Below, piece by piece: positions 1,146 to 29,641 of a DNA stretch of 64,000 nucleotides. The notes beneath the pieces are model-generated. The model was not told the origin of the DNA. It did not search any database and saw only the letters and a list, made by a program, of their open reading frames with translations. A program made the position numbers and the translations under genes. Each line of letters begins with the position of its first letter. The first letter of the stretch is position 1. Origin of the DNA: Candidatus Poribacteria bacterium (GTDB lineage: Bacteria; Poribacteria; WGA-4E; WGA-3G); NCBI GenBank assembly GCA_022824265.1, contig JAJEAG010000059.1:8736-72735 (forward strand), read 5' to 3'.

Positions 1146-2519
1146 ATGGCAACTTTGACGCAAACTGAAAACCGCATTAGACCCCTCTATATTGACGGAT
1201 ACACCCATCAACTGAGTTACGCACCTGGCGAAGAGATTGCCTTTCATGTCTCAACCAGTGCTGGGAACCACTCTCTTGAGATTGCACGCATCGGTGCAGA
1301 ACGTGAAGTAGTATTCAATGAATCTGGACTACCCGGGAAGGCACAACCTGTTCCCGTAAATGCTTCATCTCACGGATGTGGGTGGGAAGCTACCTATACG
1401 TTTGAAGTGCCAGATACATGGCAGAGCGGATATTATGAAGGTATACTCCGCGCATCAGATGGTGGTGGTGACCCCATCTATAGGAACCATCGCACAGTAG
1501 AAAGTTCTTTACACTTTATTGTTCGTCCAGCAGAACCGGGAGCTAAAACTCCAATGCTATTTCAACTTTCCACCAACACATATAACGCTTATACCAACTG
1601 GGGTGGTTTTAGTCTTTATGGGTATCACGGACAGAATGGAATGCAGGGACGACGTGTTTCATTTGACCGACCTATTGGGAGCCAGTATAGGACGTGGGAG
1701 TTACCTTTTGTTGTCTGGGCAGAACAGAATGGATATACACTTGATTATGCTGCAAATAGTGACCTTGAATTCCGTCCTGAGATGTTGAAAAATTACAAAC
1801 TGGTATTGAGCCTTGGGCACGACGAATACTGGTCTACACCAATGCGCGACAATCTTGAGAAATTCATTGCGGATGGAGGAAATGTCGCCTTCTTTAGTGG
1901 TAATGCTGTGTGTTGGCAAGTGCGTTCTGAAGACGATGGACGCGCCCTCGTCTGTTGGAAGCAAAGCTACAATCAAGACCCTGTTTACAAAACAGATGAT
2001 CACAGTACATTGAGCACTTTGTGGAGCCACCATCTGGTGAAACGTCCTGAAAACGAACTGACCGGTGTCGGTTTCCTTCAAGGTGGTTATCATTTGAGTC
2101 ACGGTCAATTTATGGATGGAGATGGTGCATATACGGCACACCGTCCAGAACATTGGGTGTTTGAAGGCACTAACTTGTCAAGGGATGAAAAGTTCGGTGG
2201 GCAAAATACCGTAGTCGGCTACGAATGCGATGGATGTGAATTTACACTTGAAGATGGCTTACCTGTACCAACTTATAAAGATGGCACTCCTGAAGGATTT
2301 ACAATTCTCGCCACGGCACCAGTCCGTTGGCATCCAGATGATTGCGAATGGTATGAACATTGGGAGCAAGGATATACAGGTGCTGCAACGATGGGTATCT
2401 ACACAAAAGGTGGCACTGTCTTTACTGCTGCTACGACAGACTGGTCACACGGCTTGGCAGGTGGGGATGCTGTTGTGGAACAGATTACGCATAATGTTTT
2501 GCGGCGGCTTTCGGCATGA
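1146..2519 (+). CDS. hypothetical protein, tentatively an N,N-dimethylformamidase-large-subunit-like / class-I glutamine-amidotransferase-like domain protein
   Basis: 457-aa ORF with SD (aaaggaggaaacatcATG). Motifs LFQLSTNTYNAYTNWGG and LGHDEYWS are recalled from DMFase-beta-like family members. Family assignment is from memory only. Confidence 0.45.
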   Translation: MATLTQTENRIRPLYIDGYTHQLSYAPGEEIAFHVSTSAGNHSLEIARIGAEREVVFNESGLPGKAQPVPVNASSHGCGWEATYTFEVPDTWQSGYYEGILRASDGGGDPIYRNHRTVESSLHFIVRPAEPGAKTPMLFQLSTNTYNAYTNWGGFSLYGYHGQNGMQGRRVSFDRPIGSQYRTWELPFVVWAEQNGYTLDYAANSDLEFRPEMLKNYKLVLSLGHDEYWSTPMRDNLEKFIADGGNVAFFSGNAVCWQVRSEDDGRALVCWKQSYNQDPVYKTDDHSTLSTLWSHHLVKRPENELTGVGFLQGGYHLSHGQFMDGDGAYTAHRPEHWVFEGTNLSRDEKFGGQNTVVGYECDGCEFTLEDGLPVPTYKDGTPEGFTILATAPVRWHPDDCEWYEHWEQGYTGAATMGIYTKGGTVFTAATTDWSHGLAGGDAVVEQITHNVLRRLSA

Positions 2520-2603
2520 AGTAATTTCTATATAACATCTAATTCTATGACCTAACAAAACGTTAAACCACCAAATTTAACATTTCCCTACATGGAGTTT
2601 TGA

Positions 2604-4052
2604 ATGGCTAATGAACGTCCGAATATCGTATTAATCACCACAGACCAACAACGCGGCGACTGTTTGGGTATTGACCCCGACGGTCCTGACTGTCTACAGA
2701 CACCGAATCTTGACTGGATCGGTCGCAGTGGAACACATTTTCGACGCGGATACGCGGAATGCCCGAGTTGTATTCCTGCCCGACGCGGTCTAATGACAGG
2801 CACTGCACCTGCAGCCAACGGAATGGTTGGATATACAGGAGCACAATGGAACCCACCACATACGCTGGCAGGTGAATTGTCCGCAGCTGGTTATCAAACC
2901 GAGATGATCGGCAAACTACATCTATCTCCACCACGCAGACGATACGGCTTTGATCACGTCCAGTTGTCCGATGCTACTCATGGAACTGCCAATAACGACT
3001 ACGTCGAATGGTTACAACAATACCATTGTCGTAATGATTACGATCCAGGGATGGCACACGGTGTCTCTGCTAACGGGTGGGTTGGACGACCACATCATCT
3101 TCCCGAAGAACAGATGCACACCTTCTGGTGTGTCGACCGCGCCCTTAAATTCCTCCGAAAACGCGATCCATCAACTCCCTTTTTCCTTAACATCTCCTTT
3201 ATAGACCCGCACCCACCGTTGACACCACCCGCACACTATTACCAACGTTACATACAGCGGGATCTTCCACCACCCGTTATTGGTGACTGGTCATTAAACC
3301 TTGACATTGAACAGAAAGGGCAGAATCCAAATGCGTGGAAGATTAACCTTGACAAATACGATATGCAATGTGCGCGGGCTGCCTATTACGGAATGATTAA
3401 TTTTATTGACGATCAGATAGGTCGGTTGCTTCAAAATGCTGGTAGTTTGAATGACTGTCTCGTTATTTTTACTTCCGACCACGGTGAAATGCTTGGTGAC
3501 CATAACATGTACCGCAAAACCTTCCCTTATGAAGCCTCTGCACGAGTGCCGTTTCTTATACGAGCACCTCGGAGATGGGGTTATCCACAAGAAACCGTCT
3601 GTAATAGTCCTGTCGGTTTGCAGGACATCATGCCCACTATACTTGATGCTGCAAATATTGAGATTCCAAGCACCTGTACTGGTAAAAGTCTATTACCTAT
3701 CATGCGAGGTGATGCTGATCGGATAAGAGAATGCCTACATGGGGAACACTCCGGTTGCTACGATAACAAACATGGCAACCACTATGTGACTGATGGACAA
3801 CACAAGTACATCTGGTATTCCCAAACGGGTAGAGAACATCTCTTCAATTTGCAAGAGGATCCACACGAAACAACAGACTTAGCACTTCAGAGCGACGCTG
3901 AAACTCTACTAACTCCGTGGAGGAATCGTCTGATTGAGTTCCTCCGCGACCGTCCTGAAGGTTTTACGGATGGAAAGAACCTCATTGCGGGGCAACCCCA
4001 TAAAGCTTTGTTGCCTGACTATGATGCCAATGCAACATATCCTTATTTATGA
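2604..4052 (+). CDS. sulfatase (formylglycine-dependent arylsulfatase family)
   Basis: N-terminal PNIVLITTDQQRGD plus the CIPARRGLMTG signature (C-x-P-x-R) in the 482-aa ORF. Confidence 0.9.
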   Translation: MANERPNIVLITTDQQRGDCLGIDPDGPDCLQTPNLDWIGRSGTHFRRGYAECPSCIPARRGLMTGTAPAANGMVGYTGAQWNPPHTLAGELSAAGYQTEMIGKLHLSPPRRRYGFDHVQLSDATHGTANNDYVEWLQQYHCRNDYDPGMAHGVSANGWVGRPHHLPEEQMHTFWCVDRALKFLRKRDPSTPFFLNISFIDPHPPLTPPAHYYQRYIQRDLPPPVIGDWSLNLDIEQKGQNPNAWKINLDKYDMQCARAAYYGMINFIDDQIGRLLQNAGSLNDCLVIFTSDHGEMLGDHNMYRKTFPYEASARVPFLIRAPRRWGYPQETVCNSPVGLQDIMPTILDAANIEIPSTCTGKSLLPIMRGDADRIRECLHGEHSGCYDNKHGNHYVTDGQHKYIWYSQTGREHLFNLQEDPHETTDLALQSDAETLLTPWRNRLIEFLRDRPEGFTDGKNLIAGQPHKALLPDYDANATYPYL

Positions 4053-4070
4053 AAATCCGTTGCGGGTATA

Positions 4071-5522
4071 ATGTTAGTTACTGTTGCGTATTCGGTGATG
4101 ACGTGCTATCCTATTTATATGGAAACTGCAAAACGAAATCCTTCAGCAATGCGCACTCCCGGTGCTGTACTCTTAATCTCCTGCTATGAACTTGGACACC
4201 GACCAATAGGACTAACGCGTCCTCTTCGCGCACTTGAAAGTGCAGGATTTTCACCCGATACTATTGACATTGCAGTCGAAACCTTGGATACAGAAAAGGT
4301 CAGCCGTGCAGAGTTTATTGGTATCTCTGTACCGATGCATACTGCCTTACGACTCGGTGTTCACCTGCTCCAACGAATTCGTGAACTCAACCCAGATGTC
4401 CCAATATGCATGTATGGACTTTACGCGGGACTCAATGCCGACTACCTACTCTCACACGGGGTTGACTATTGCATCAGTGGTGAAGTGTCTACGCAACTTG
4501 TTGAGTTAGTACAATCTCTTGCAAAGAAAAAACACACGAAGGCACAGAAACATCCAACAATCACTATCGGAAAACTTCCTGCTTTAGAAAAATACGCACA
4601 ATTTGAGGATAAAGATGAAGTGCGAACCGTCGGCTATACAGAGACAACGCATGGATGCAAGCATCTTTGCACGCATTGCCCTATACCTCCTGTCTATAAC
4701 GGAAAATTTTTTCCTGTGCAGCGTGATACTGTGTTAGACGAAATTCAGAAACAGGTAGCAGAAGGGGCGACACACATAACATTCGGTGACCCTGATTTCC
4801 TCAACGGTCCAATGCACGGACTTCGCATTCTCCGCGCAATGCATGAGATCTGCCCCGACCTAACATTTGACTTTACAACAAAGATTGAGCATATTCTTAA
4901 ACATAGAAAACACTTTGCTGAATTTGCTGGACTCGGATGCCGATTTATCATTTCTGCGGTAGAATCGCTAAGTGACAAGGCGTTAACTATTTTGGAGAAA
5001 CACCACACTCGCGCAGATGTTGAAACTGCACTTGAGATTGTTCACGGTGCTGGAATCGCACTAAGACCAACATGGGTACCGTTCACTCCGTGGACAACCT
5101 TAGACGACTATCTTGAAATCCTTGAATTCGTCAACACACACCGACTCGTTTACCATGTTGATCTTGTACAGTACGCGGTTCGGTTGCTCATTCCACCCGG
5201 TTCATATCTGCTAAACCGACCCGAAACAAAAGCACTTTCATTCACATTTGATCAAACTGTCTTTAGTTATATGTGGTCACACTCCGATCCACGTATGGAT
5301 GAACTTCACAAAACGGTTAATGCCCTTGTAGAAAAAGACGCACGAACCGATGTTGATACAAAGGACACCTTTTATCGGATATGGGAACTTGCCGCTGATA
5401 TGAAAGGACAACCTATACCGAAACGAAGGAGTGTATTACATTTACCCGCGCCACGTATTACTGAAGCATGGTTTTGCTGAGCGGAACCTACCGAAGGGCA
5501 GTTTGCCCCAATACATGTTTAG
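4071..5522 (+). CDS. B12-binding-domain radical SAM protein, CUAEP-tail family; predicted selenoprotein (in-frame TGA 5478-5480 read as Sec; real stop TAG 5520-5522)
   Basis: CX3CX2C (GCKHLCTHC) is a radical-SAM cluster motif. The N-terminal domain resembles class-B B12-binding (..VDYCISGEVSTQLVEL..). The annotated ORF ends ...EAWFC-TGA, but the next codons GCG GAA CCT give C-U-A-E-P, then TEGQFAPIHV-TAG. The start codon is uncertain (ATG at 4071, 4098 or 4119). Confidence 0.7.
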
Positions 5523-5546
5523 AATTTACTTCACAAAGGAGAAAGT

Positions 5547-6233
5547 ATGTCAAAACAATTACAAGAACTACTTGACTTAGAAACTGCACCTATTGCAGTA
5601 ACATTCCACGAGGCACAACCTGATGGTGTTTCCCGTGTGGAAAAAGTTGAAGCATCAGGTTGCACCTATTGGAAACGCGCATCAGAAGGAAAAACCTTTT
5701 ACACAGAAGCATCTGACCATTACAACTGTCCAATAGGGTGTTATACTCATAATGTCGAACTACCCGATGAACAAATGAAGGAGTTGGAAAACACTCTTGG
5801 ATTAATGGGTGAACTCGGTTATATTAGTATGGATGAAGTCCCCGGTATCCCTCGTCAAGAAAATACGTTTCAAAACGCAGTCTACTCCCCATTAGCAGAC
5901 ACACAAGACATACCGGATGTTGTTATTATCTCTGGCACGCCAAAGCAGATGATGCTCTTAGTTGAAGCCGCGACCGCTGCAGGAATAGAGATAGAAAACG
6001 GCATCATGGGAAGACCAACCTGTGCTGTTATACCTGCTGTTATTCAGTCTGATGGAGGCGCAAGTAGTCTGGGATGCATTGGTAACCGAGTTTATACTGC
6101 GCTCTCTGACGATGATTTCTACTTAGCTTTCCCAGGCAAACATATTGATGCTATTATAGATAAGTTAGAGACAATTGTGAATGCAAACCATGCATTAGCG
6201 GAATATCATCAGCAACGGCAAGAGGAAATCTGA
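5547..6233 (+). CDS. DUF169 family protein
   Basis: 228-aa ORF with a strong SD (aaaggagaaagtATG). Cys-containing motifs (ASGCTYW, NCPIGCY, PTCAVIP, LGCIGNR) are typical of DUF169/COG2043. Its stop overlaps the next gene's start (TGAATG). Confidence 0.7.
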   Translation: MSKQLQELLDLETAPIAVTFHEAQPDGVSRVEKVEASGCTYWKRASEGKTFYTEASDHYNCPIGCYTHNVELPDEQMKELENTLGLMGELGYISMDEVPGIPRQENTFQNAVYSPLADTQDIPDVVIISGTPKQMMLLVEAATAAGIEIENGIMGRPTCAVIPAVIQSDGGASSLGCIGNRVYTALSDDDFYLAFPGKHIDAIIDKLETIVNANHALAEYHQQRQEEI

Positions 6234-7025
6234 ATGAAAAGCGTTGCTGTGATTACCGGTGCCGCAAGTGGCATCGGACGCGGTATGGCGGAACGGTTCG
6301 CTGCAGAAGGAATGGCAGTTGTCATCGCGGATATTGAGGAACAACCATTAGCCAAACTTGAGGCAGACCTACGGACTAAAGGCGCAACAGTCCTCGCTGT
6401 CCGAACAGATGTCTCAAACGCAGCCGATGTTGAAAACCTTGCTGTACAAACGGTTGATACTTATGGTGCGGTGCATATCCTGTGCAACAACGCAGGTGTA
6501 GTCTGTAGCCGTCCAATCTGGGAACATACCCCCGCCGATTGGGAATGGGTATTAGGTGTCAACCTCTGGGGTGTAATTCACGGTATCCGTGCATTTGTCC
6601 CACGCATGCTAAAGCAAGAAACTGTATGTCATATTGTGAACACTGCTTCTATTCTCGGTTTAGTCCGAGGTCCAGGTGAAGGCATCTATAAAGTCAGCAA
6701 ACACGGTGTCGTTACGCTTTCGGAAACCCTTGCCGACGAGTTAGCACAAAAAGATTCACAAATTCAGGTGCATGTATTGTGTCCCGGTTGGGTGCGCACA
6801 GGTATACTCAATTCCTCTCGTAATCGTCCAGATGTTGAAGCGCACCATAATCGGCAACATATCACCGAATCCCAGAATGTTCGCGCTGAGATGGAAGCAG
6901 GAATCTCTCCTGCCGAAGTGGCAGATCATGTCTACAACGCAATTCAGACAGGTACATTCTATATTCACACACACCCTGAACATAAAGCGTGGATCCGCGC
7001 CCGTATGGAAGGTATTCTCGGTTAG
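6234..7025 (+). CDS. SDR family oxidoreductase (short-chain dehydrogenase/reductase)
   Basis: TGAASGIGRG Rossmann motif, NNAG, and the catalytic Y-x3-K (YKVSKHG). Confidence 0.9.
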   Translation: MKSVAVITGAASGIGRGMAERFAAEGMAVVIADIEEQPLAKLEADLRTKGATVLAVRTDVSNAADVENLAVQTVDTYGAVHILCNNAGVVCSRPIWEHTPADWEWVLGVNLWGVIHGIRAFVPRMLKQETVCHIVNTASILGLVRGPGEGIYKVSKHGVVTLSETLADELAQKDSQIQVHVLCPGWVRTGILNSSRNRPDVEAHHNRQHITESQNVRAEMEAGISPAEVADHVYNAIQTGTFYIHTHPEHKAWIRARMEGILG

Positions 7026-7086
7026 TTTATGTTATTCTACCTGTTTTATATATGGTGAACTTTGTAAATAAAGGGACTTATGTTCT

Positions 7087-7151
7087 GTAGGAGCGATCTC
7101 CGAATCGCGACGATACTCATTGATAGTCGGGAATCGGAGTTCCCAACCTAC
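7087..7151. repeat. Inverted pair of REP-like palindromic elements with a 5' GTAG head (gtaggagcgatctccgaatcgcgac / rc tgtaggttgggaactccgattcccgac)
   Basis: Seen directly. The first unit is identical to 54781-54805. The second unit on the opposite strand has the same GTAGG+stem-loop architecture. Confidence 0.6.
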
Positions 7152-7299
7152 ATCTCTATATGTTCCATTAATTCTAAAGTTCACCATAAACGAATCTAAA
7201 CAGATTTATTTCAGGAGAAACTAATCCTGGTAATCCTATAATCCTGAAAATCTTGGTTCTGACAAAACAACCATACATATCTATATCTCTGCATTGCCG

Positions 7300-7329
7300 T
7301 TGACAAAATCAACTTTTTCATTGTATACT
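7300..7329 (+). promoter_or_regulatory. candidate sigma-70 promoter (TTGACA-18 nt-TATACT) for the 7514 lipoprotein operon
   Basis: ttgacaaaatcaactttttcattgtatact. Same -10 context (tgtatact) as the tRNA promoter at 53362. Confidence 0.45.
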
Positions 7330-7513
7330 ATTTTTAATAGAGTATTAACTTTTGATCTCAAGGAACCTTATATTCTCATCTTACCAAGTGAGAATATAAA
7401 AGCCGAAGATATACCAAGGGTTGAAACGCGGATAATTATTAAACCGCGCTAACTGGCGAACGAAACCTTTTTATCAACCCATGATCGTTAATAATTCAAG
7501 AGGAGAGATTTAC

Positions 7514-8014
7514 GTGTTTCGCTTAAAATTGAAATTACGAGCAGTTATTCTCGTCTGCATCTGCATACTCACACTGCTTGCATGCGGAACAGGGGAAATC
7601 CAAAATTTTGAAGGTATCAGCATCATATCTGAATCGCGTATTGATCGGATAAACATCACCGTTTATCTTACTGATAAACATGGAGTTCCACTAATATGGA
7701 ATCAAAGTATTCTTAGTCCAAGTGTCGGTGTTAGCACTATTTCAGACGCTGACTTTATCACACACGCAAAAATCTATTCAATGCGCAACGGTGAGAAACA
7801 TCGGTTAGTTTACGATGAAAGGCTTGTTGATGTGCGATGGGGACAGGAACCAAACAGCCTTAATAGAATCCTGAAGGCAGAAATACCGCGCGCGCTAATT
7901 GATGAAGACCCAGACCGTGATACGAGAAATGGAGTTATCACTGTTGAAGTAAAGACAGAAAAACAGGGTCCTTTCACGGATACCGTGGAAGAAACTGCTA
8001 TATATAGAAAATAA
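7514..8014 (+). CDS. putative lipoprotein (signal peptide + LLACG lipobox)
   Basis: SD agaggagag 6 nt before GTG 7514. The N-terminus is VFRLKLKLRAVILVCICILTLLACG. The track ORF starts at the upstream ATG 7481. Confidence 0.5.
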   Translation: MFRLKLKLRAVILVCICILTLLACGTGEIQNFEGISIISESRIDRINITVYLTDKHGVPLIWNQSILSPSVGVSTISDADFITHAKIYSMRNGEKHRLVYDERLVDVRWGQEPNSLNRILKAEIPRALIDEDPDRDTRNGVITVEVKTEKQGPFTDTVEETAIYRK

Positions 8015-8016
8015 CA

Positions 8017-8874
8017 ATGCCTATACACACACAAGACTATCGACATTGGGAAGGGACGCTAAACCCTCAAAAATATACACGGTGGTGGGTTATCGCAAAA
8101 GCTGAATTGAAACTACTCGCAAAACGCAAAATCGTCCGACTAATTATTGCGATTCCACCGGTTATTTACATCATAGTGCACGCAGTAATGATCTACTTAT
8201 ACAACCTGTTTGAAGCGGTTGATTTTCCCTTTAAGGTAGACTCAGCGTTTTTTCAGCACTTTATTTTTAGAATTGAGTTTATATCAGGACTTTTTGTTGC
8301 CATAATTGCAATTTTTGGGGGTGCAGGGTTAATTGCCAACGATCTAAAGAGCAACGCACTTTCCCTTTACCTATCTAAACCAATTTCATGGGTAGATTAC
8401 CTCATCGGAAAATTTGCTGCAGTCGGTATATTGCTTACATGCATAACGTTGTTACCCGGGATGTTGCTATTTCTGGAACAACTGTTGTTATCCGATTTTA
8501 ACTTCTTTAAAGAGAATTTCTGGATAGTTTTCTCCATTATCGGCTATTCAATAGTCGTCACCACTATCACGAGCCTACTGATGTTGGTCTTCTCATCACT
8601 AACAACAAATTCTCGGTATGCGACCATCGGTTTTTGTGCAGTTTGGTTTGGATTACCTGTCCTCCACGCCATCCTCATAATAACTCTTCGAACGAGCAAA
8701 GTTGCTTTAGTCTCTATTTGGGCAAACTATGATCGTCTTGGTTCAGTCCTTTTCGCTTCAGATAATAGCTACACCACACACTGGTCTATCACGCTCCTGA
8801 TATTAAGTGCGTTGACTGTCGGCTGTATCCTCGTTCTTAGACATCGGATACGTGCTGTAGAGATCGTCAAATAG
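8017..8874 (+). CDS. polytopic membrane protein, ABC-2-type permease-like
   Basis: N-terminal RWWVIAKAELKLL, as in ABC-2 permeases, with about 6 hydrophobic helices. There is a 2-nt gap to the upstream lipoprotein gene. No ATPase gene is adjacent. Confidence 0.5.
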   Translation: MPIHTQDYRHWEGTLNPQKYTRWWVIAKAELKLLAKRKIVRLIIAIPPVIYIIVHAVMIYLYNLFEAVDFPFKVDSAFFQHFIFRIEFISGLFVAIIAIFGGAGLIANDLKSNALSLYLSKPISWVDYLIGKFAAVGILLTCITLLPGMLLFLEQLLLSDFNFFKENFWIVFSIIGYSIVVTTITSLLMLVFSSLTTNSRYATIGFCAVWFGLPVLHAILIITLRTSKVALVSIWANYDRLGSVLFASDNSYTTHWSITLLILSALTVGCILVLRHRIRAVEIVK

Positions 8875-10950: not shown

Positions 10951-11466
10951 CTGAACATACATGAAACATATTGTTCCAATCCACTCAAACCCTTCCATTC
11001 CACATCCACCACCTGTTATAATACTATCTATGAAAAACAAAAACCGAACATACCCACATTCACAACAAAAACCGACACCCGTCACCCAAAAAATGACCAA
11101 AATTCAGGAAATAAAAAACGCACCAAAAATGAAAAATTCAAAATTTCCAAAAACCCCTATAAACCCAGTCCCAGACTGGTAAAACCCCAAATATCAAAAC
11201 GCACCAATGTGCGAAAAACACCCGTTTTTAGTGCGTTTTTAAAAGGAGCAAAAACCGATGAATTTACAACAAAAACACAAACAATTCGCTGTCAGCCCCT
11301 TTAATCTCATTCTAATCGTAGGGGCGAGGTTACCTCGCCCGTCTAATCTGTATTTTCTCTTTATTCGGAATGGGGAACTCCTCCCTATGATTGGAATGTC
11401 CTGTGGGATCAACCCTTCTGCGTCTTCCGCGATTAAGACAGAAAAATCGGCAATTGAATGTCTCTG
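10951..11466. repeat. copy 1 of a ~0.5-0.6 kb duplicated, G-depleted non-coding module (second copy 63034-63646)
   Basis: Long stretches identical or near-identical to 63034-63646. Includes the hairpin aaaacgcac...gtgcgttttt and a conserved short-ORF start with a strong SD. The ORFs 10961..11182 and 11258..11467 are not conserved between the copies. Confidence 0.6.
11318..11341. repeat. REP-like element gtaggggcgaggttacctcgcccg (GTAGG + 6-bp stem around GGTTaCC), inserted within copy 1 of the module
   Basis: Same consensus as 62722-62745 (gtaggggcgaggtttcctcgcccg). Absent from the corresponding position in copy 2, where a different GTAGG element sits instead. Confidence 0.5.
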
Positions 11467-11484
11467 ATTTAATAAAACCTAATC

Positions 11485-11513
11485 TTGACAAAACGGGTTG
11501 TGTATGATAGACT
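11485..11513 (+). promoter_or_regulatory. candidate promoter for glycerate kinase (TTGACA-17 nt-TAGACT)
   Basis: ttgacaaaacgggttgtgtatgatagact ends 7 nt before ATG 11521. This argues against the track's 11485 start. Confidence 0.35.
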
Positions 11514-11520
11514 TGCGGTC

Positions 11521-12750
11521 ATGAAAATTGTTGTCGCACCAGATTCATTTAAAGGAAGCGTCACCGCATTACAAGCCGCGAATGCCATTGAACAAGGACT
11601 CCGCCGAGTATTTCCTGATGCTGATATAGATAAAATTCCGATGGCAGACGGCGGTGAAGGTACTGTGCAATCCCTTGTTGATGCCACTGGTGGTAACATT
11701 CAGACGCAACGCGTGCTTGGTCCGCTCGGAAACGAGGTGGATGCACAATTCGGAATCCTCGCAGATGAAGAGACAGCGGTGATTGAGATGGCATCTGCAT
11801 CGGGATTAACGCTTGTTGCAACAGATAAGCGAAATCCATTGCTAACCACAACCTACGGTACAGGACAACTTATTCGTACTGCATTAGAAAAAGGTTGCAG
11901 AAAGTTAATCATCGGAATTGGTGGGAGTGCAACAAATGATGGTGGGGCAGGCATGGCAGAAGCACTTGGTGTACAATTCCTTAAATCAGATGGAAATCCC
12001 ATTGCGCGAGGTGGAGGTGGACTGGGTGAGTTAGACTCAATAGATAACACGAATATACATCCAGCAATAGCGGAAACGGCAACAATTGTCGCTTGTGATG
12101 TCAATAATCCGTTGACCGGACCAGATGGGGCATCACATGTTTACGGACCGCAGAAAGGTGCAACCCCTGAGATGGTGACAACGCTTGACGCACATCTGGA
12201 ACATTATGGCAACGTTTTGAAGCAGACACTTAGGCAATCCTATAACGACATTCCCGGTGCAGGTGCTGCGGGTGGATTAGGTGCTGGTCTGATGGCATTT
12301 CTCAATGCAAAATTGCAACTCGGTGTTGACATTATGATTGATGCTGTTAATCTGAAGGATCGGATGAAAGGTGCTTCTCTTGTCTTCACTGGTGAAGGTC
12401 AATTAGATTTTCAAACGGCATTTGGCAAAACTCCTGTCGGTGTTGCAAAGGTAGCAAAAGAACACAATATCCCTGTGATAGCAATTGCTGGAGGTATTGG
12501 TGACGGGGCAGAAGCGGTATATAATGCCGGTATTGATGCGATGTTAGGCATTGTCCAAGCACCGATGTCGCTTGAGGATGCAGTTGAAGACGCGCTGCAA
12601 CTAATTACCGATACAGCTGAGCAAGCCGCACGATTGATTGCAGTTGGTCAACGTGAACCCTTTAGACGAAATTTGACCAAGTTAAAAGAAAAATGGGAAA
12701 GGCAGAAGACAAACGATGCTAACCCTCCCATTTCCCATTCTTCTAACTAA
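11521..12750 (+). CDS. glycerate kinase (GarK/GlxK family)
   Basis: MKIVVAPDSFKGS N-terminus and a GxGGSATNDGG-type motif (IGIGGSATNDGGAG). Confidence 0.85.
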   Translation: MKIVVAPDSFKGSVTALQAANAIEQGLRRVFPDADIDKIPMADGGEGTVQSLVDATGGNIQTQRVLGPLGNEVDAQFGILADEETAVIEMASASGLTLVATDKRNPLLTTTYGTGQLIRTALEKGCRKLIIGIGGSATNDGGAGMAEALGVQFLKSDGNPIARGGGGLGELDSIDNTNIHPAIAETATIVACDVNNPLTGPDGASHVYGPQKGATPEMVTTLDAHLEHYGNVLKQTLRQSYNDIPGAGAAGGLGAGLMAFLNAKLQLGVDIMIDAVNLKDRMKGASLVFTGEGQLDFQTAFGKTPVGVAKVAKEHNIPVIAIAGGIGDGAEAVYNAGIDAMLGIVQAPMSLEDAVEDALQLITDTAEQAARLIAVGQREPFRRNLTKLKEKWERQKTNDANPPISHSSN

Positions 12751-12925
12751 TAGTTATACCCAATTAACGAGATTTATCTTGTTATTCGACAGTAGATGCG
12801 GTTTCCTAACCAATGCAGAATGCCATAAGTGCATTCTGCCGAGACCAAAGAATTGTCAGTAGGAATGAGGTTTCCTTGTCCGTGCAAACAAGACAAATTA
12901 GGTTAATTTGGTATTACATTTGCAT

Positions 12926-12980
12926 GAGGATACGCTGCAACTGATTGCGGACACCGTTGAACAAGTTTCGCGATTCATCT
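12926..12980 (+). pseudogene. remnant duplicate of the glycerate kinase 3' end (~70% nt identity to 12586-12637)
   Basis: gaggatacgctgcaactgattgcggacaccgttgaacaag... aligns with gaagacgcgctgcaactaattaccgatacagctgagcaag... It translates to EDTLQLIADTVEQVSRFIS versus EDALQLITDTAEQAARLIA, and stops interrupt it upstream. Confidence 0.35.
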
Positions 12981-13006
12981 CTAACAAAGACTTGTTTACA
13001 ACATTT

Positions 13007-13071
13007 CTTATTAACGTTTAAGAGGGTAAACGTTAATAACGGGATTGCTTATTAACGTTTAAGAGGGTAAA
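13007..13071. repeat. two perfect 24-bp direct repeats (cttattaacgtttaagagggtaaa) 41 bp apart, upstream of fic; candidate operator
   Basis: Seen directly. The near-palindrome cgttaataacg lies between the repeats. Confidence 0.6.
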
Positions 13072-13102
13072 ATTAATAATCTAATTCTTTGTAATTAAGG
13101 TA

Positions 13103-14299
13103 ATGCGATCTGAAATGAACCAAGAAAACTTCAGAAATTCAAGTGCAGGTAGATGTATCCGAAGTATAGGCAGGCACCCATATTGGGCTTTTGTGCCGAA
13201 TCCGCTGCCTCCCAAAATCGAACTGGACTGGGAGTTGATAGACCTACTTTCCAAAGCAGATATCAGACTTGGAAAATTGTCTGGAGCCGGTCAACTACTT
13301 CCAAATCCTCACCTGTTGATCAGTCCGTTTATACGCAGGGAGGCAGTCATGAGTTCCAGAATTGAAAACACACAATCTGGGTTAAAGCAACTATTTTTGT
13401 TTGAGGCAGACCAAACAGAAACACCACGTATTCCCGATGTCCAAGAAGTTCGTAACTACGTTAATGCAATGGAATACGGAATCAAAAGGTTGAAAGACTT
13501 ACCGATGAGTGTAAGGCTTGTTTGTGAAATCCACGAAATACTAATGGAAGGTGTTCGGGGAGAAAATGCAACACCAGGGTTGATGCGGACAAAACAAAAC
13601 TGGATTGGTAAACCCAACTGTACTTTAATGGATGCCACTTATGTTCCTCCCCCAGTACCAGAAATGAGAGACTGCTTTTCTGAATTGGAGAAATATATTC
13701 ATTCCAACACAAAAGAACCAGCTTTGATTCAATGCGCGTTGATCCATTATCAATTTGAGGCTATTCACCCATTTGTTGATGGAAATGGAAGAATCGGCAG
13801 GCTTTTGATTACATTTATGTTAATAGAACGAGGGGTATTGTCACAACCGCTCCTGTATCTCTCTGATTATTTCGAACAACATAGAAATACCTATTATGAA
13901 TTGTTGTTGAATGTGAGTCAAAAAGGTGATTGGAAATCGTGGTTGAAGTTTTTTCTTGATGGTGTGTGTGAACAATCTGAAGATGCACTTTCAACAGTTC
14001 AAAAACTTCTTACATTGAAAGATGAATACACGGAGATTGCAAGGGAACCGAAGGTGTCAAAGACTGTAGCCCAACTAGTTGAGGTATTATTTGGAAAACC
14101 AATTGTATCAATATCAGAATTGATGAGAAGGTGGGATACATCGTTTCCTACGGTTAAACGGGGAGTGGATTATCTTGTTGATAGAGGAAAACTGACAGAA
14201 GTGACAGGAAAACAACGCAACCGTTTATATGCTGCAAATGAAATCCTTGACGTGATTATGACTGAAAGAACAGAAGCACTTAGTAACACAAAGGAATAG
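13103..14299 (+). CDS. Fic family protein (Fic_N + FIC domain, HPFVDGNGRIGR motif)
   Basis: Canonical HxFx(D/E)GNGRxxR motif and an N-terminal YWAFVPNPLPP Fic_N-like region. Confidence 0.85.
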   Translation: MRSEMNQENFRNSSAGRCIRSIGRHPYWAFVPNPLPPKIELDWELIDLLSKADIRLGKLSGAGQLLPNPHLLISPFIRREAVMSSRIENTQSGLKQLFLFEADQTETPRIPDVQEVRNYVNAMEYGIKRLKDLPMSVRLVCEIHEILMEGVRGENATPGLMRTKQNWIGKPNCTLMDATYVPPPVPEMRDCFSELEKYIHSNTKEPALIQCALIHYQFEAIHPFVDGNGRIGRLLITFMLIERGVLSQPLLYLSDYFEQHRNTYYELLLNVSQKGDWKSWLKFFLDGVCEQSEDALSTVQKLLTLKDEYTEIAREPKVSKTVAQLVEVLFGKPIVSISELMRRWDTSFPTVKRGVDYLVDRGKLTEVTGKQRNRLYAANEILDVIMTERTEALSNTKE

Positions 14300-14406: not shown

Positions 14407-15744
14407 TTACTGCAACAATACTGGCACATCTTTCATAAAATCATCGGTCTCTGTCTGCCATCTATTTAGTTCAGTAGCCAACGATTTGACGCGTTCCGCG
14501 TGTTCCGGTTGTTCAGCAAGGTTGTTTGTTTCCCAAGGGTCATTCTCTAAATCAAACAATTGAAGGTAATTGGTGCCTTTACCAGTCTCTTCAGAGACAT
14601 AATAGCGGATAAGTTTCCATTTGCCATCACTCACAGTGCGATGAATGTCTTTATACGCAGCAAAAACCGTATCGCGAACCTTGTCAACACAACCTTCCAT
14701 CAGCGGAACTAAGCTGCAGCCTTCCACTGTATCCGGAATGTCAACGTTGGTAAGGTCACACACGGTGGGAAATACGTCGTAGAGATAGGTCAATGCATCG
14801 ACTGTCTGCCCTTCGGGGATTCCCGGTCCAGCAAATATTGACGGCACACGAATGCTGTGGTTATACAAATTCTGTTTTCCAAGTAACCCGTGTTGTCCAA
14901 CTGCGAGTCCGTGGTCTGCAGTGTAGATTACAATAGTGTTATCAAGATGCCCTTTTGCCTCTAATGTCTGTAGGACGCGACCCATTTCGGCATCCTGACT
15001 GGTAATCATACCGTAATAATCAGCAATATGTTGCTGGACAATCTCTGGAGTGCGTGGGAACGGTGCTAATACTTCATCTCGAATCCGCATCTCTCCATTG
15101 TCAAATGGGTGTTCGGCAACGAAGTTCTCCGGAACGGGAACATCTTCAGGTTTATACATCGTCGCATATTCACCTGGTGGAGTTCTTGGATCGTGCGGAG
15201 AAGTAAAGGAGAGATATACAAAAAATGGATCCGTTTGGTCATAGTTTTCTATAAAATCCACGGCGGAGTCTGTAAACAGTGTCGTAGAGAATTTATCTCC
15301 GATATACCTGTTATCTTTCGGATAAGCACCTGACGGATCATAATCGAAAATGGGCACTTTATATTGATTACCCATGCCACCGAAGAAAATAGTAGCACCA
15401 TCGTCAAAACTATTGGTAAACGTCTGTCTGTCATTGTGCCACTTACCGCTAAAAAATGTACTATATCCTGCATCACGCATGACCTGTGGCCAAACAGCCA
15501 AATCTCGGTTAAGTTGGTTGCCACCACTGCGGAATAGGTTAGCACTGGTAAGAACAGCAGCACGACTGGGTACACAGACAGCACCAACGAGAGAACCCAT
15601 GATATGAGTTTCTCGGAACGTCGTTCCACGTGCCATGAGTGAGTCCATCGTCGGTGTTTTCACCGTCGAGTCCCCATAACCTGCTATGGCATCCCAACGG
15701 TGGTCATCGGCAATCATAAAGAGTATATTAGGTTGTGAAGGCAT
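14407..15744 (-). CDS. sulfatase (formylglycine-dependent)
   Basis: PNILFMIADDHRWD and the CVPSRAAVLTS C-x-P-S-R signature. Confidence 0.9.
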   Translation of the reverse strand: MPSQPNILFMIADDHRWDAIAGYGDSTVKTPTMDSLMARGTTFRETHIMGSLVGAVCVPSRAAVLTSANLFRSGGNQLNRDLAVWPQVMRDAGYSTFFSGKWHNDRQTFTNSFDDGATIFFGGMGNQYKVPIFDYDPSGAYPKDNRYIGDKFSTTLFTDSAVDFIENYDQTDPFFVYLSFTSPHDPRTPPGEYATMYKPEDVPVPENFVAEHPFDNGEMRIRDEVLAPFPRTPEIVQQHIADYYGMITSQDAEMGRVLQTLEAKGHLDNTIVIYTADHGLAVGQHGLLGKQNLYNHSIRVPSIFAGPGIPEGQTVDALTYLYDVFPTVCDLTNVDIPDTVEGCSLVPLMEGCVDKVRDTVFAAYKDIHRTVSDGKWKLIRYYVSEETGKGTNYLQLFDLENDPWETNNLAEQPEHAERVKSLATELNRWQTETDDFMKDVPVLLQ

Positions 15745-28163: not shown

Positions 28164-29564
28164 TCATTTCAATAATGACCAATCAGGTTCGTCTTCAGGA
28201 TCGCCAAGAGGTCCGTGGGCGTTACGGACGATGCGACGTTGTGCGTCATACCAATCCGTATAGCTTGTGGCAGGTTGGAGTTTATCGTTACGAGCATCCA
28301 TCAGGTTTAGGAGGGTGGTTTCCATCTCATCTGCTAAAGATTGTGCTTCAGAGTTGTCAATCAGGTTGTTCATCTGCAGCGGATCTGATCCAATGTCGTG
28401 CAGCATCCGTTTACCGTTAAGCCATCGTGCATAGCTATGGGTTTTTGTGCGAACACCTCGCCATTCGTTACCATCAACAAGGTAATCGTAGGTTGACCCA
28501 AAGTTCATCGTCAGAACAGCATCTTGTTCATAAGCATCCGTTTCACCACGCCAAGATGCAGACAAATCGTAACCTTCCACTGTGCGAGGTGTCGGAATTC
28601 CGCATAAACCGCAGAGAGAGGGAAATAGGTCTACAGGTGATGTGAGGGTGTCACAGGTTCCATTATCTTCAAAAACACCGGGTAACCGCATGATGAGTGG
28701 TACTTTGATCGATTCCTCGTAAGGTTCTCGCTTTGCCCAGAAATTGAGATTCTGTGCACCACCTTGCGTACCGTGATCAGAACCAAAGACGAGTAATGTG
28801 TTATCCACACGACCCGTTTTTTCAAGATATGCCATCAACTCTCCGAGCATATCGTCTACTGCTAAAATCATAGCAAGATAGTGTCTGTAAGCATTTAACG
28901 AACGTTCTCGTTGGTTGTCTGAAACGTTCTCAGGTAGATGGAGTTCAGCGGGTAGGCGTTCATAGTATTCTTGTGGTGCATATTCGTAGGGTGTCCCGTG
29001 TGCTTGATGTGGAGAGATAAACAGACAGAACGGGGTATCCTTACCTATATCATCCATAAATTGAAATGCGTATCGGTTGAGTGCATCTGTCTCGTATCCT
29101 TCCCATCTTTCGTTCCGCCAATTGTCAAGGTTTACAGTACCATTGAAATAGTCGGTGTGGAAGTTGTAGCCACGCCAATGTTGAAATCCGAGACGGTCAC
29201 GACCTTCAGGGACATAATCGCGTCCACCGATTTCTGGGAATGAACCTGTGTGGAGATGCCATTTACCGACCCATGCTGTGCGATAACCGTTACGATTGAA
29301 AACGTCACCGAGTCCAATTTCATCGTGACGTGTCTTTACGAAATTTATGAGATGACCGGTTGTCTGCGGGTGTCGTCCCGTGAGTAGCATGGAACGGTAG
29401 GGGGTACAGACAGGTGCAGTAGCAATTGCGTTTGAGAAAACGGTGCCTTCTTGTGCGAGTCTATCTATATGTGGTGTTTCAATCTGCTTTTCACCGTATA
29501 CTGGTAATGAGCAGGCACGAATTTGATCTGATAGGAGATATACGATGTTCGGTTTGTTTGTCAT
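28164..29564 (-). CDS. sulfatase (formylglycine-dependent)
   Basis: MTNKPNIVYLLSDQ and the CTPYRSMLLTGRHP C-x-P-x-R signature. The start may instead be the upstream ATG at 29603. Confidence 0.85.
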   Translation of the reverse strand: MTNKPNIVYLLSDQIRACSLPVYGEKQIETPHIDRLAQEGTVFSNAIATAPVCTPYRSMLLTGRHPQTTGHLINFVKTRHDEIGLGDVFNRNGYRTAWVGKWHLHTGSFPEIGGRDYVPEGRDRLGFQHWRGYNFHTDYFNGTVNLDNWRNERWEGYETDALNRYAFQFMDDIGKDTPFCLFISPHQAHGTPYEYAPQEYYERLPAELHLPENVSDNQRERSLNAYRHYLAMILAVDDMLGELMAYLEKTGRVDNTLLVFGSDHGTQGGAQNLNFWAKREPYEESIKVPLIMRLPGVFEDNGTCDTLTSPVDLFPSLCGLCGIPTPRTVEGYDLSASWRGETDAYEQDAVLTMNFGSTYDYLVDGNEWRGVRTKTHSYARWLNGKRMLHDIGSDPLQMNNLIDNSEAQSLADEMETTLLNLMDARNDKLQPATSYTDWYDAQRRIVRNAHGPLGDPEDEPDWSLLK

Positions 29565-29641
29565 GATTATTAGATTGTAATGTATGGGATTTAAAATGCC
29601 CATCCCATGAGAAATAACTATTTGTCATAGTTGATCAAATT

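Follow-up and report, generated by a model that had tools for sequence, protein, structure and literature searches.

Five tightly spaced genes on one strand, with a selenocysteine-containing radical S-adenosylmethionine (SAM) enzyme in their midst, raise the question of what this enzyme does and which of its neighbours work with it. The genes lie at positions 1146-7025 of a 64,000-nt stretch of DNA from a Candidatus Poribacteria bacterium (GenBank assembly GCA_022824265.1, contig JAJEAG010000059.1, positions 8,736 to 72,735, forward strand), which we analysed as a whole and call the window. A preliminary description of this DNA had taken the five genes for one transcription unit and had suggested an uncharacterised cofactor, peptide-modification or small-molecule pathway, possibly linked to sulfated substrates. 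We find that the enzyme is kin to ArsL, which forms carbon-arsenic bonds, and that the neighbour it keeps across phyla is a DUF169 protein. We tentatively suggest that the two act on a soft metal(loid) or chalcogen. The features of the locus are the following:

1146-2519, + strand: DMFA2_C-family amidase-like protein, 457 aa (PF20254, E 4.9e-85)
2604-4052, + strand: Cys-type arylsulfatase, 482 aa (NF010322, 513 bits versus cutoff 481; PF00884)
4119-5525, + strand: CUAEP-tail radical SAM selenoprotein, 468 aa counted from Met17 (NF040546, 616 bits versus cutoff 500)
4071-5480, + strand: the same radical SAM gene as it stands in the list of open reading frames (ORFs), opening at the first ATG and ending at the TGA
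5478-5480, + strand: in-frame UGA read as selenocysteine (Sec), residue 470 from the first ATG (TGA or TGC at the same codon in homologues)
5493-5511, + strand: selenocysteine insertion sequence (SECIS) hairpin, core stem-loop 5496-5508 GGGCA-GUU-UGCCC (folding and covariation)
5547-6233, + strand: DUF169 protein, 228 aa (PF02596, E 1.8e-28)
6234-7025, + strand: classical short-chain dehydrogenase/reductase (SDR) oxidoreductase, 263 aa (PF00106, E 6.2e-50; NF004843, 328 bits versus cutoff 308)

We wondered whether the UGA that closes the radical SAM ORF is a stop. The ORF ends in TGC-TGA (5475-5480), with a Cys codon directly before the TGA, and the frame runs on beyond it as AEPTEGQFAPIHV, up to a TAG at 5523-5525. 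The codons TGC TGA GCG GAA CCT at 5475-5489 spell the C-terminal motif C-U-A-E-P. Across 81 homologous loci (described below) the Sec codon is TGA in 62 and TGC in 13, and the tail around it has the consensus W-F-C-[U/C]-A-E-P-T-x-x-Q. The hairpin that follows starts 13-15 nt 3' of the UGA in the homologous loci and 15 nt 3' of it in the window gene; its C-A-G, made of the stem top and the loop start, is invariant, and the next UU is kept in at least 90% of the sequences. In an ungapped alignment of 56 loci the stem covaries: 60 cells show changes on both sides, versus 24.9 ± 4.1 in shuffled alignments (none of 500 shuffles reached 60), and all slid registers score lower than the true one. Because the codon is conserved as TGA or TGC, a conserved hairpin follows the UGA and the stem covaries, recoding of this UGA as Sec is well supported, in line with the preliminary description, which had called the enzyme Sec-containing. 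At gathering thresholds, Rfam returned only four tRNAs in the 64-kb window and no SECIS family match. None of the four is a tRNA-Sec, and the window covers only this part of the genome.

To which family does the enzyme belong? It clearly falls into NF040546, the family of CUAEP/CCAEP-tail radical SAM selenoproteins, matching model positions 1-467 of 468 over residues 33-479 with 616.3 bits. It has the defining tail and Sec position of the family and no sequence difference from it. This family is already catalogued, and Haft lists it as uncharacterised. Fourteen NCBIfam families match the enzyme; ArsL (NF040542) ranks second, and all further radical SAM families score 39 bits or less. Aligned with a representative that bears the RCCLKC tail, the enzyme is collinear over 413 aa at 35% identity. 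By sequence, ArsL is its only close characterised relative and forms the sister family; the preliminary description missed this most informative relative. The homology runs collinearly over the full length and takes in the same N-terminal Rossmann/B12-like domain and the same CX3CX2C core. ArsL splits SAM into methylthioadenosine (MTA) and a 3-amino-3-carboxypropyl (ACP) species, forms the C-As bond of hydroxyarsinothricin, and binds As(III) through three tail cysteines that are essential for activity (10.1101/2024.02.01.577332, 10.64898/2026.04.29.721666). The same papers describe a canonical-fold radical SAM enzyme with an atypical reactivity, the formation of a carbon-metalloid bond.

The window enzyme has the radical SAM motif CX3CX2C at C196/C200/C203 (numbering from 4071 here and below), invariant in 32 diverse members of the family. 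Only three cysteines follow it (261, 290 and 469), and the enzyme thus has no SPASM or twitch cluster. At the N terminus lies a Rossmann/B12-binding-like domain (PF02310, E 2e-7), which scores 31.3 bits, slightly below the gathering score of 32.1, and is predicted as a five-strand alpha/beta fold with a predicted local distance difference test score (pLDDT) of roughly 66-85; the preliminary description had named a B12-binding domain at this place. A sequence search of the PDB with the radical SAM protein gave only a spurious match to a response regulator.

We then compared the tails of the wider clade. Among 1.84 billion representatives that we scanned, 3653 are relatives of the radical SAM protein at E values up to 0.001, and 382 of these reach 1e-30 or better, all counted as representatives at 50% identity. 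The best 150 relatives end in WFC-stop (Sec forms cut at the UGA), WFCCAEP or WFCCAAP, and more distantly in RCC[LI]KC. An adjacent residue pair is kept in all of these variants (CU, CC-AEP, CC-AAP and RCCLKC), and two adjacent chalcogen residues on the C-terminal tail are the unifying feature of the clade. The window enzyme and ArsL share this feature on a flexible tail, the third part of their common architecture, and in ArsL the tail binds the substrate atom. According to Haft, the rare CU motif is common to HgcA, MerT-family and SAO proteins and is interpreted as a heavy-metal ligand. WFCCAAP makes a third tail variant of the clade, found in the representatives P0187, P0211, P0226, P0230, P0253 and P0254.

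Which neighbours does the enzyme keep? With a profile of 32 diverse members we collected 80 loci, one genome per species, and an exact look-up added one more. These 81 loci span 14 named taxa; 10 are close Poribacteria loci (at least 75% identity) and 71 are of lower identity. Each of the 10 close Poribacteria loci has a DUF169 gene and then an SDR gene 3' of the radical SAM gene, and the SDR also follows DUF169 in the Poribacteria-type metagenome loci L082-L085. The sulfatase gene lies immediately upstream in 6 of the 10 and is missing in the other 4, and 9 of the 10 have a same-strand amidase gene no more than 10 kb away (81-8611 nt). Neither the amidase nor the sulfatase occurs near the enzyme in any of the 71 lower-identity loci. 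Among the 35 loci of other phyla that have at least 3 kb on either side, none has a sulfatase or an amidase within 10 kb and none has an SDR within 3 kb; the only SDR matches elsewhere are weak ones (29-33% identity), 5-7 kb off, in three loci. Sulfatase, amidase and close SDR are thus neighbours of the enzyme in Poribacteria only, and the amidase-like gene is a loosely linked, lineage-specific one. DUF169 lies within 3 kb in 6 of the same 35 loci and is found downstream in 9 of the 71, with some 50% identity; these 9 are from Planctomycetota and Nitrospirota, apart from one on a mis-binned contig. Most radical SAM loci of Chloroflexota, Rokubacteria/Methylomirabilota, Acidobacteriota and Gemmatimonadota have no DUF169 gene within 10 kb.

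We also approached the linkage from the DUF169 side. A profile of the DUF169 clade that is linked to the radical SAM enzyme gave 80 metagenome loci, 20 of which have at least 1.5 kb on either side. A CUAEP radical SAM gene adjoins DUF169 in 18 of these 20, and outside Poribacteria in 16 of 18. The linkage is recurrent and reciprocal across phyla, and we infer that DUF169 is a conserved, dedicated partner of the radical SAM enzyme. Thus, of the linkages that the preliminary description had singled out for a conservation check, the one to DUF169 recurs in other phyla while those to the SDR and the sulfatase stay within Poribacteria. The window DUF169 protein itself is a solid family member (PF02596, 100.3 bits versus a gathering score of 27, model positions 2-208 of 209). 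Within the linked clade it keeps four invariant cysteines (C39, C61, C159, C177) and two invariant histidines (H58, H68). A sequence search of the PDB with it was empty, and searches of the literature for DUF169 and COG2043 found no functional study. To that extent the statement of the preliminary description that the functions of CUAEP-tail enzymes and DUF169 are not established agrees with the literature searched, and our partner analysis exceeds anything we found there on NF040546.

Between the radical SAM gene and the DUF169-SDR pair, 4 of the 10 close Poribacteria loci have 2-5 kb of inserted DNA. In L001 the inserted gene (11459-13717) encodes a 752-aa WD40-repeat protein, and the insertions in L002, L003 and L005 measure 2.3-4.7 kb and occupy the corresponding site; DUF169 and SDR stay together in all four. 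A Poribacteria genome with a more distant copy of the enzyme (L011:9995-12355, 58% identity) has the tail CUAEPTEGQLD, as in Planctomycetota, with no DUF169 or SDR nearby and a NifU-like ORF 3' of the gene. Two types of this radical SAM system may therefore exist in Poribacteria.

To see what else accompanies the enzyme, we clustered all neighbouring ORFs without bias and annotated them afterwards. An ATP-grasp protein of the L-amino-acid ligase (LAL) type (PF13535 plus LAL_C2), whose best characterised matches are DdaF and BacD, is present in 24 of the 71 lower-identity loci, usually co-oriented with the enzyme gene and less than 1 kb away. In 18 of the 71 an Nfu/NifU-domain ORF is found no farther than 3 kb off; proteins of the Nfu type are donors of Fe-S clusters for radical SAM enzymes (PMC9585516, PMC12501116). 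A formyltransferase-like gene in divergent orientation is found in 11 Chloroflexota loci, and 5 Acidobacteriota loci encode an amino-acid effluxer of the ATG22-like MFS transporter type. In Nitrospirota, the genes for radical SAM, DUF169 and ligase form tight operons, with spacings in L032 of 16 nt between radical SAM and DUF169 and 10 nt between DUF169 and ligase.

The DUF169-anchored loci brought out a longer operon. Outside the Poribacteria type, 11 of the 20 loci that have at least 3.5 kb downstream carry an extra block of four genes after the pair, encoding in this order a secreted protein, a small membrane protein, a lysA-like pyridoxal-phosphate (PLP) decarboxylase that does not reach the LysA cutoff, and a secreted FGE-sulfatase-domain protein. 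The last two genes complete the extended operon in L147:7670-9990 and L113:3874-6084. It is curious that an FGE-domain gene in other phyla and a sulfatase gene in Poribacteria both lie near the radical SAM-DUF169 pair.

The first two proteins of the block appear to be unannotated selenoproteins. The secreted protein (about 190 aa, encoded downstream of DUF169) reads GVMTVTGAEMH-[TGA][TGA]-AGVARDATARLYDVD in 19 of 19 copies examined, a motif H-U-U that would place a Sec-Sec pair just past the signal peptide, and a covarying hairpin GUGGCG...CGCCAC begins 6 nt after the UGA pair. It has no Pfam or NCBIfam match, even when U is replaced by C, and is a candidate for a new Sec-Sec selenoprotein family (copies at L112:6700-7290, L104:6706-7311 and L147:6803-7417, in L098, L102, L106, L121 and L129, and in others). 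The membrane protein reads ...AAAVPN-[TGA]-TAAGILSLLGLAGG... in 20 of 22 copies, with the UGA in the first helix (AAAVPN-U-TAAG), and its paralogues in L088 and L116, the other 2 of the 22, read LPW-[TGA][TGA]-IIP. A covarying hairpin CCCUGC-UCGGGUUA-GCAGGG lies about 20 nt past the UGA. This protein matches MerT_RC607 over its full length (E 4.7e-9), with 36.5 bits that fall far under the cutoff of 130; we place its MerT-like copies at L112:7311-7679, L104:7335-7625, L088:6316-6621 and L116:3274-3576.

The related operons thus share several traits with the Mer system. In mercury resistance, Hg(II) is handed over from MerT to the C-terminal Cys pair of MerA, with MerP as a further member of the relay. 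Here, a secreted Sec-Sec protein and a MerT-like Sec protein accompany a cytoplasmic radical SAM enzyme with a Cys-Sec pair at its C terminus, and the Sec/Cys pairs on the three proteins resemble a Mer-style relay for thiophilic metals. The differences are that the MerT match is low, that the secreted protein belongs to no family and that MerA, MerB and MerR are missing. In addition, the Mer-like genes are absent from the window and the close Poribacteria loci.

Taken together, these data lead us to a tentative reading, which we hold to be somewhat short of probable: the enzyme would be ArsL-like, would use its Cys-Sec tail to offer a soft metal(loid) for the formation of a carbon-element bond and would thereby yield an unusual amino acid, with DUF169 as its dedicated partner. 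The functional core would be the radical SAM selenoprotein (4119-5525) and DUF169 (5547-6233), with the abutting SDR added in Poribacteria. The Cys469-Sec470 tail would hold a soft metal(loid) or chalcogen atom, to which the 3-amino-3-carboxypropyl fragment of SAM would be joined as in ArsL, and the product would be a gamma-substituted 2-aminobutyrate. DUF169, with its invariant cysteines and histidines, would hand over the atom or act as redox partner. The amino acid would be processed in Poribacteria by the SDR, possibly also by the acylase-like DMFA2_C protein, and in other lineages by the L-amino-acid ligase, the PLP decarboxylase or the formyltransferase-like protein. How SAM is cleaved, and what DUF169 and the SDR do, we infer from the ArsL kinship and the neighbours; As(III)/Sb(III) and Hg(II) would be the leading candidates for the element.

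This reading draws on two themes. The lineage-specific partners (ligase, decarboxylase, formyltransferase-like protein, effluxer and acylase-like DMFA2_C protein) are, judging by their families, all proteins that handle alpha-amino or alpha-carboxyl groups, and this is the chemistry that one would expect to follow a product that is an amino acid and comes, like that of ArsL, from the methionine moiety of SAM. From this theme and that of the Mer-like relay, which is independent of it, we prefer an ArsL-like reaction whose target is a soft metal(loid) or chalcogen. The partners in other phyla, which the preliminary description could not take into account, point to soft-metal(loid) and amino-acid chemistry and not to the peptide modification considered there. 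A wider proposal seems doubtful to us. It would be a widespread selenium-dependent pathway, in which a Sec-captured thiophilic metal(loid) would pass to the Cys-Sec tail, receive the 3-amino-3-carboxypropyl group and become an organometal(loid) or organochalcogen amino acid, to be ligated, decarboxylated or redox-tailored, with DUF169 as a new kind of partner. Such a pathway may range over Poribacteria, Planctomycetota, Nitrospirota, Acidobacteriota, Chloroflexota, Rokubacteria and others, and in some phyla capture may run through the Mer-like Sec-Sec periplasmic protein and the Sec-bearing membrane protein.

Several points weigh against the ArsL-like reading. The match to ArsL has 312.2 bits and lies under the cutoff of 450, and the tails differ: W-F-C-U-A-E-P-T in the window enzyme versus R-C-C-L-K-C in ArsL, with two ligands (one of them Sec) versus three. 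The ligands of the window tail are C469 and U470, and no other Cys is invariant in the family. The company of the two enzymes differs too. At the window enzyme no ars-type context (arsM/arsQ, ars operon) was found among the annotated flanking genes, and the CUAEP family is partnered by DUF169, SDR, LAL ligase, Nfu, PLP decarboxylase and Mer-like selenoproteins. Among the gene clusters common to at least 5 of the 81 loci ars and mer resistance genes are lacking, as is any recurrent methyltransferase. Ligase, Nfu, MerT-like protein, Sec-Sec protein and decarboxylase are all absent from the window and the 10 close Poribacteria loci, and the proposed mechanism is thus carried over from other phyla. 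The bond of SAM that is cleaved cannot be read from the sequence, and the literature searched assigns no function to the CUAEP-tail family and holds no biochemistry for any member. Structure prediction adds little. The radical SAM model built from 32 close homologues is poor (pLDDT 54.1), and the AlphaFold2 model of DUF169 is of medium quality (pLDDT 68.7, below 50 at residues 156-189) and found no match in a Foldseek search of the PDB (best E 0.16, TM at most 0.23).

Could the enzyme instead be a conventional 5'-deoxyadenosyl enzyme, possibly a cobalamin-dependent class B methyltransferase, that acts on an organic substrate and uses Cys-Sec as a redox selenenylsulfide arm? Mammalian thioredoxin reductase (TrxR) has an adjacent Cys-Sec pair in its GCUG tail that is established as a redox tail. 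The order of a B12-binding-like domain followed by the radical SAM core is that of class B methyltransferases of the PhpK, HpnR and TsrM type, the N-terminal PF02310 match and the predicted five-strand fold agree with it, and there are weak matches to the class B families PhpK, HpnR and TIGR04013. However, these matches reach only 33-39 bits, against 312 for ArsL, and the Pfam B12 domain stays slightly below its gathering score. ArsL has the same N-terminal domain and its papers describe no cobalamin requirement, and the Mer-like Sec proteins of the related operons fit metal handling better than redox. We consider this explanation unlikely. A little less likely still is that the radical SAM enzyme matures DUF169, which would then be the real catalyst: the enzyme would build or insert a metallocofactor, with Nfu as scaffold, or modify a Cys or His of its partner. 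NifB and HydG, which make cofactors for partner proteins, and Dph2, which modifies EF2, are models for this. The two-way adjacency (18 of the 20 DUF169-anchored loci; from the enzyme side, all 10 Poribacteria loci and 9 others), the four invariant cysteines and two invariant histidines of DUF169, the poor prediction of residues 156-189, which hold two of these cysteines, and the Nfu-domain neighbour in 18 loci all suit such a role. Yet most radical SAM loci of the four phylum groups named above manage without DUF169 within 10 kb, and the ligase, decarboxylase and effluxer partners point to a free amino-acid product.

The remaining explanations turn on the sulfatase. All five ORFs are intact, lie on the + strand where the preliminary description had placed them and have strong family matches. 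The gaps given there of 84 nt (amidase-sulfatase), 18-66 nt (sulfatase-radical SAM: 18 nt to the first ATG at 4071, 66 nt to Met17 at 4119) and 0 nt (the SDR start abuts the DUF169 stop) held, and the gap of 24 nt before DUF169 was one codon off, the distance from the true radical SAM stop being 21 nt. Met17 is invariant in 32 close homologues and is thus the likely start of the radical SAM protein. An AAGGAG ribosome-binding site precedes the DUF169 gene at 5537-5542. The five genes may share a transcript. No intrinsic terminator was predicted on the + strand between them, the only + site falling inside the first gene, and promoter-like sites stand at chance level (18 found versus 14.0 ± 3.1 expected). 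Together with this tight one-strand spacing, the same five-gene order in L003, L004 and L082 and the FGE-sulfatase-domain protein in the extended operon of other phyla could be taken to mean that all five act as a unit in the metabolism of a sulfated substrate, in which the sulfatase acts on a substrate or product of radical SAM, DUF169 and SDR. We find this improbable. The sulfatase is missing in 4 of the 10 close Poribacteria loci, the amidase lies 81-8611 nt off, and neither is near the enzyme in the 71 other loci. The closest source-named homologues of both the radical SAM and the DUF169 protein are from Poribacteria, and among the close Poribacteria genomes, whose radical SAM proteins are 75-89% identical, synteny extends well past the five genes; because genes outside the five are syntenic too, the shared order mostly reflects common descent, and we rejected it as functional evidence. 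Poribacteria are also rich in sulfatases (PMC7081726), and the 64-kb window alone has three. Because the linkage of sulfatase, amidase and SDR is limited to Poribacteria and the sulfatase is often missing even there, the five genes are not established as one functional pathway, and the link to sulfated substrates raised in the preliminary description has no support beyond local synteny (sulfatase in none of the 35 well-flanked loci of other phyla).

That the radical SAM enzyme is the anaerobic maturase which converts Cys to formylglycine in the adjacent sulfatase is very improbable; we rejected this candidate as close to refuted. A Cys-type sulfatase with the CIPAR motif does adjoin the radical SAM gene in 6 of the 10 Poribacteria loci, as one would see for an anaerobic sulfatase-maturating enzyme (anSME). 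But anSME has 7-8 cysteines for auxiliary clusters, while the window enzyme has no SPASM or auxiliary-cluster Cys, no anSME among its 14 NCBIfam matches, and a B12-like N-terminal domain in place of the SPASM domain, so the preliminary description was right to set it apart from this class. Moreover, the 71 other family loci have no sulfatase nearby, and the other two sulfatases of the window have no such radical SAM neighbour. The sulfatase is probably a bystander or a lineage-specific addition in a sulfatase-rich genome.

The ArsL kinship makes the locus of wider interest. The CUAEP family is the only close sister of ArsL, is far more widespread and usually has Sec at the presumed substrate-binding site. 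Its sisterhood with ArsL, the reciprocal pairing with DUF169 and the amino-acid and soft-metal context form a testable lead for new carbon-element bond chemistry. If a related chemistry on another element were true, the microbiomes of soil, groundwater, ocean and sponges would have a new way to make organometal(loid) natural products or to detoxify; DUF169 would gain a first function, and the recurrence of the rare Cys-Sec motif in metal-handling proteins would be explained. In practical terms, the analysis supplies natural orthologues with a CCAEP tail that could be expressed, names a defined partner and offers candidate elements.

We note some further features of the window. The closest solved relatives of the amidase-like protein are an N-acetyl-(R)-beta-phenylalanine acylase (E 1e-13) and the large subunit of N,N-dimethylformamidase. 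The sulfatase has the motif CIPARRGLMTG, with C-x-P-x-R present as CIPAR at residues 56-60, and no N-terminal signal peptide is visible in it by eye; the three sulfatase-family paralogues of the window lie at 2604-4052, 14407-15744 and 28164-29603. An AT-rich gap of 455 nt (7026-7480) follows the SDR gene and is probably the 3' end of the unit; the region 3' of the SDR folds no better than shuffled sequences (z -1.49). A promoter-like site matching 11 of 12 positions (7300-7329) lies upstream of a putative lipoprotein gene (7481-8014), after which comes an ABC-2 permease gene (8017-8874). Farther along, a Fic/DOC-family gene with Fic_N and Fic domains (13103-14299) lies amid catabolic genes for PhyH dioxygenases, an amidohydrolase, a glycerate kinase and an enolase-superfamily enzyme.

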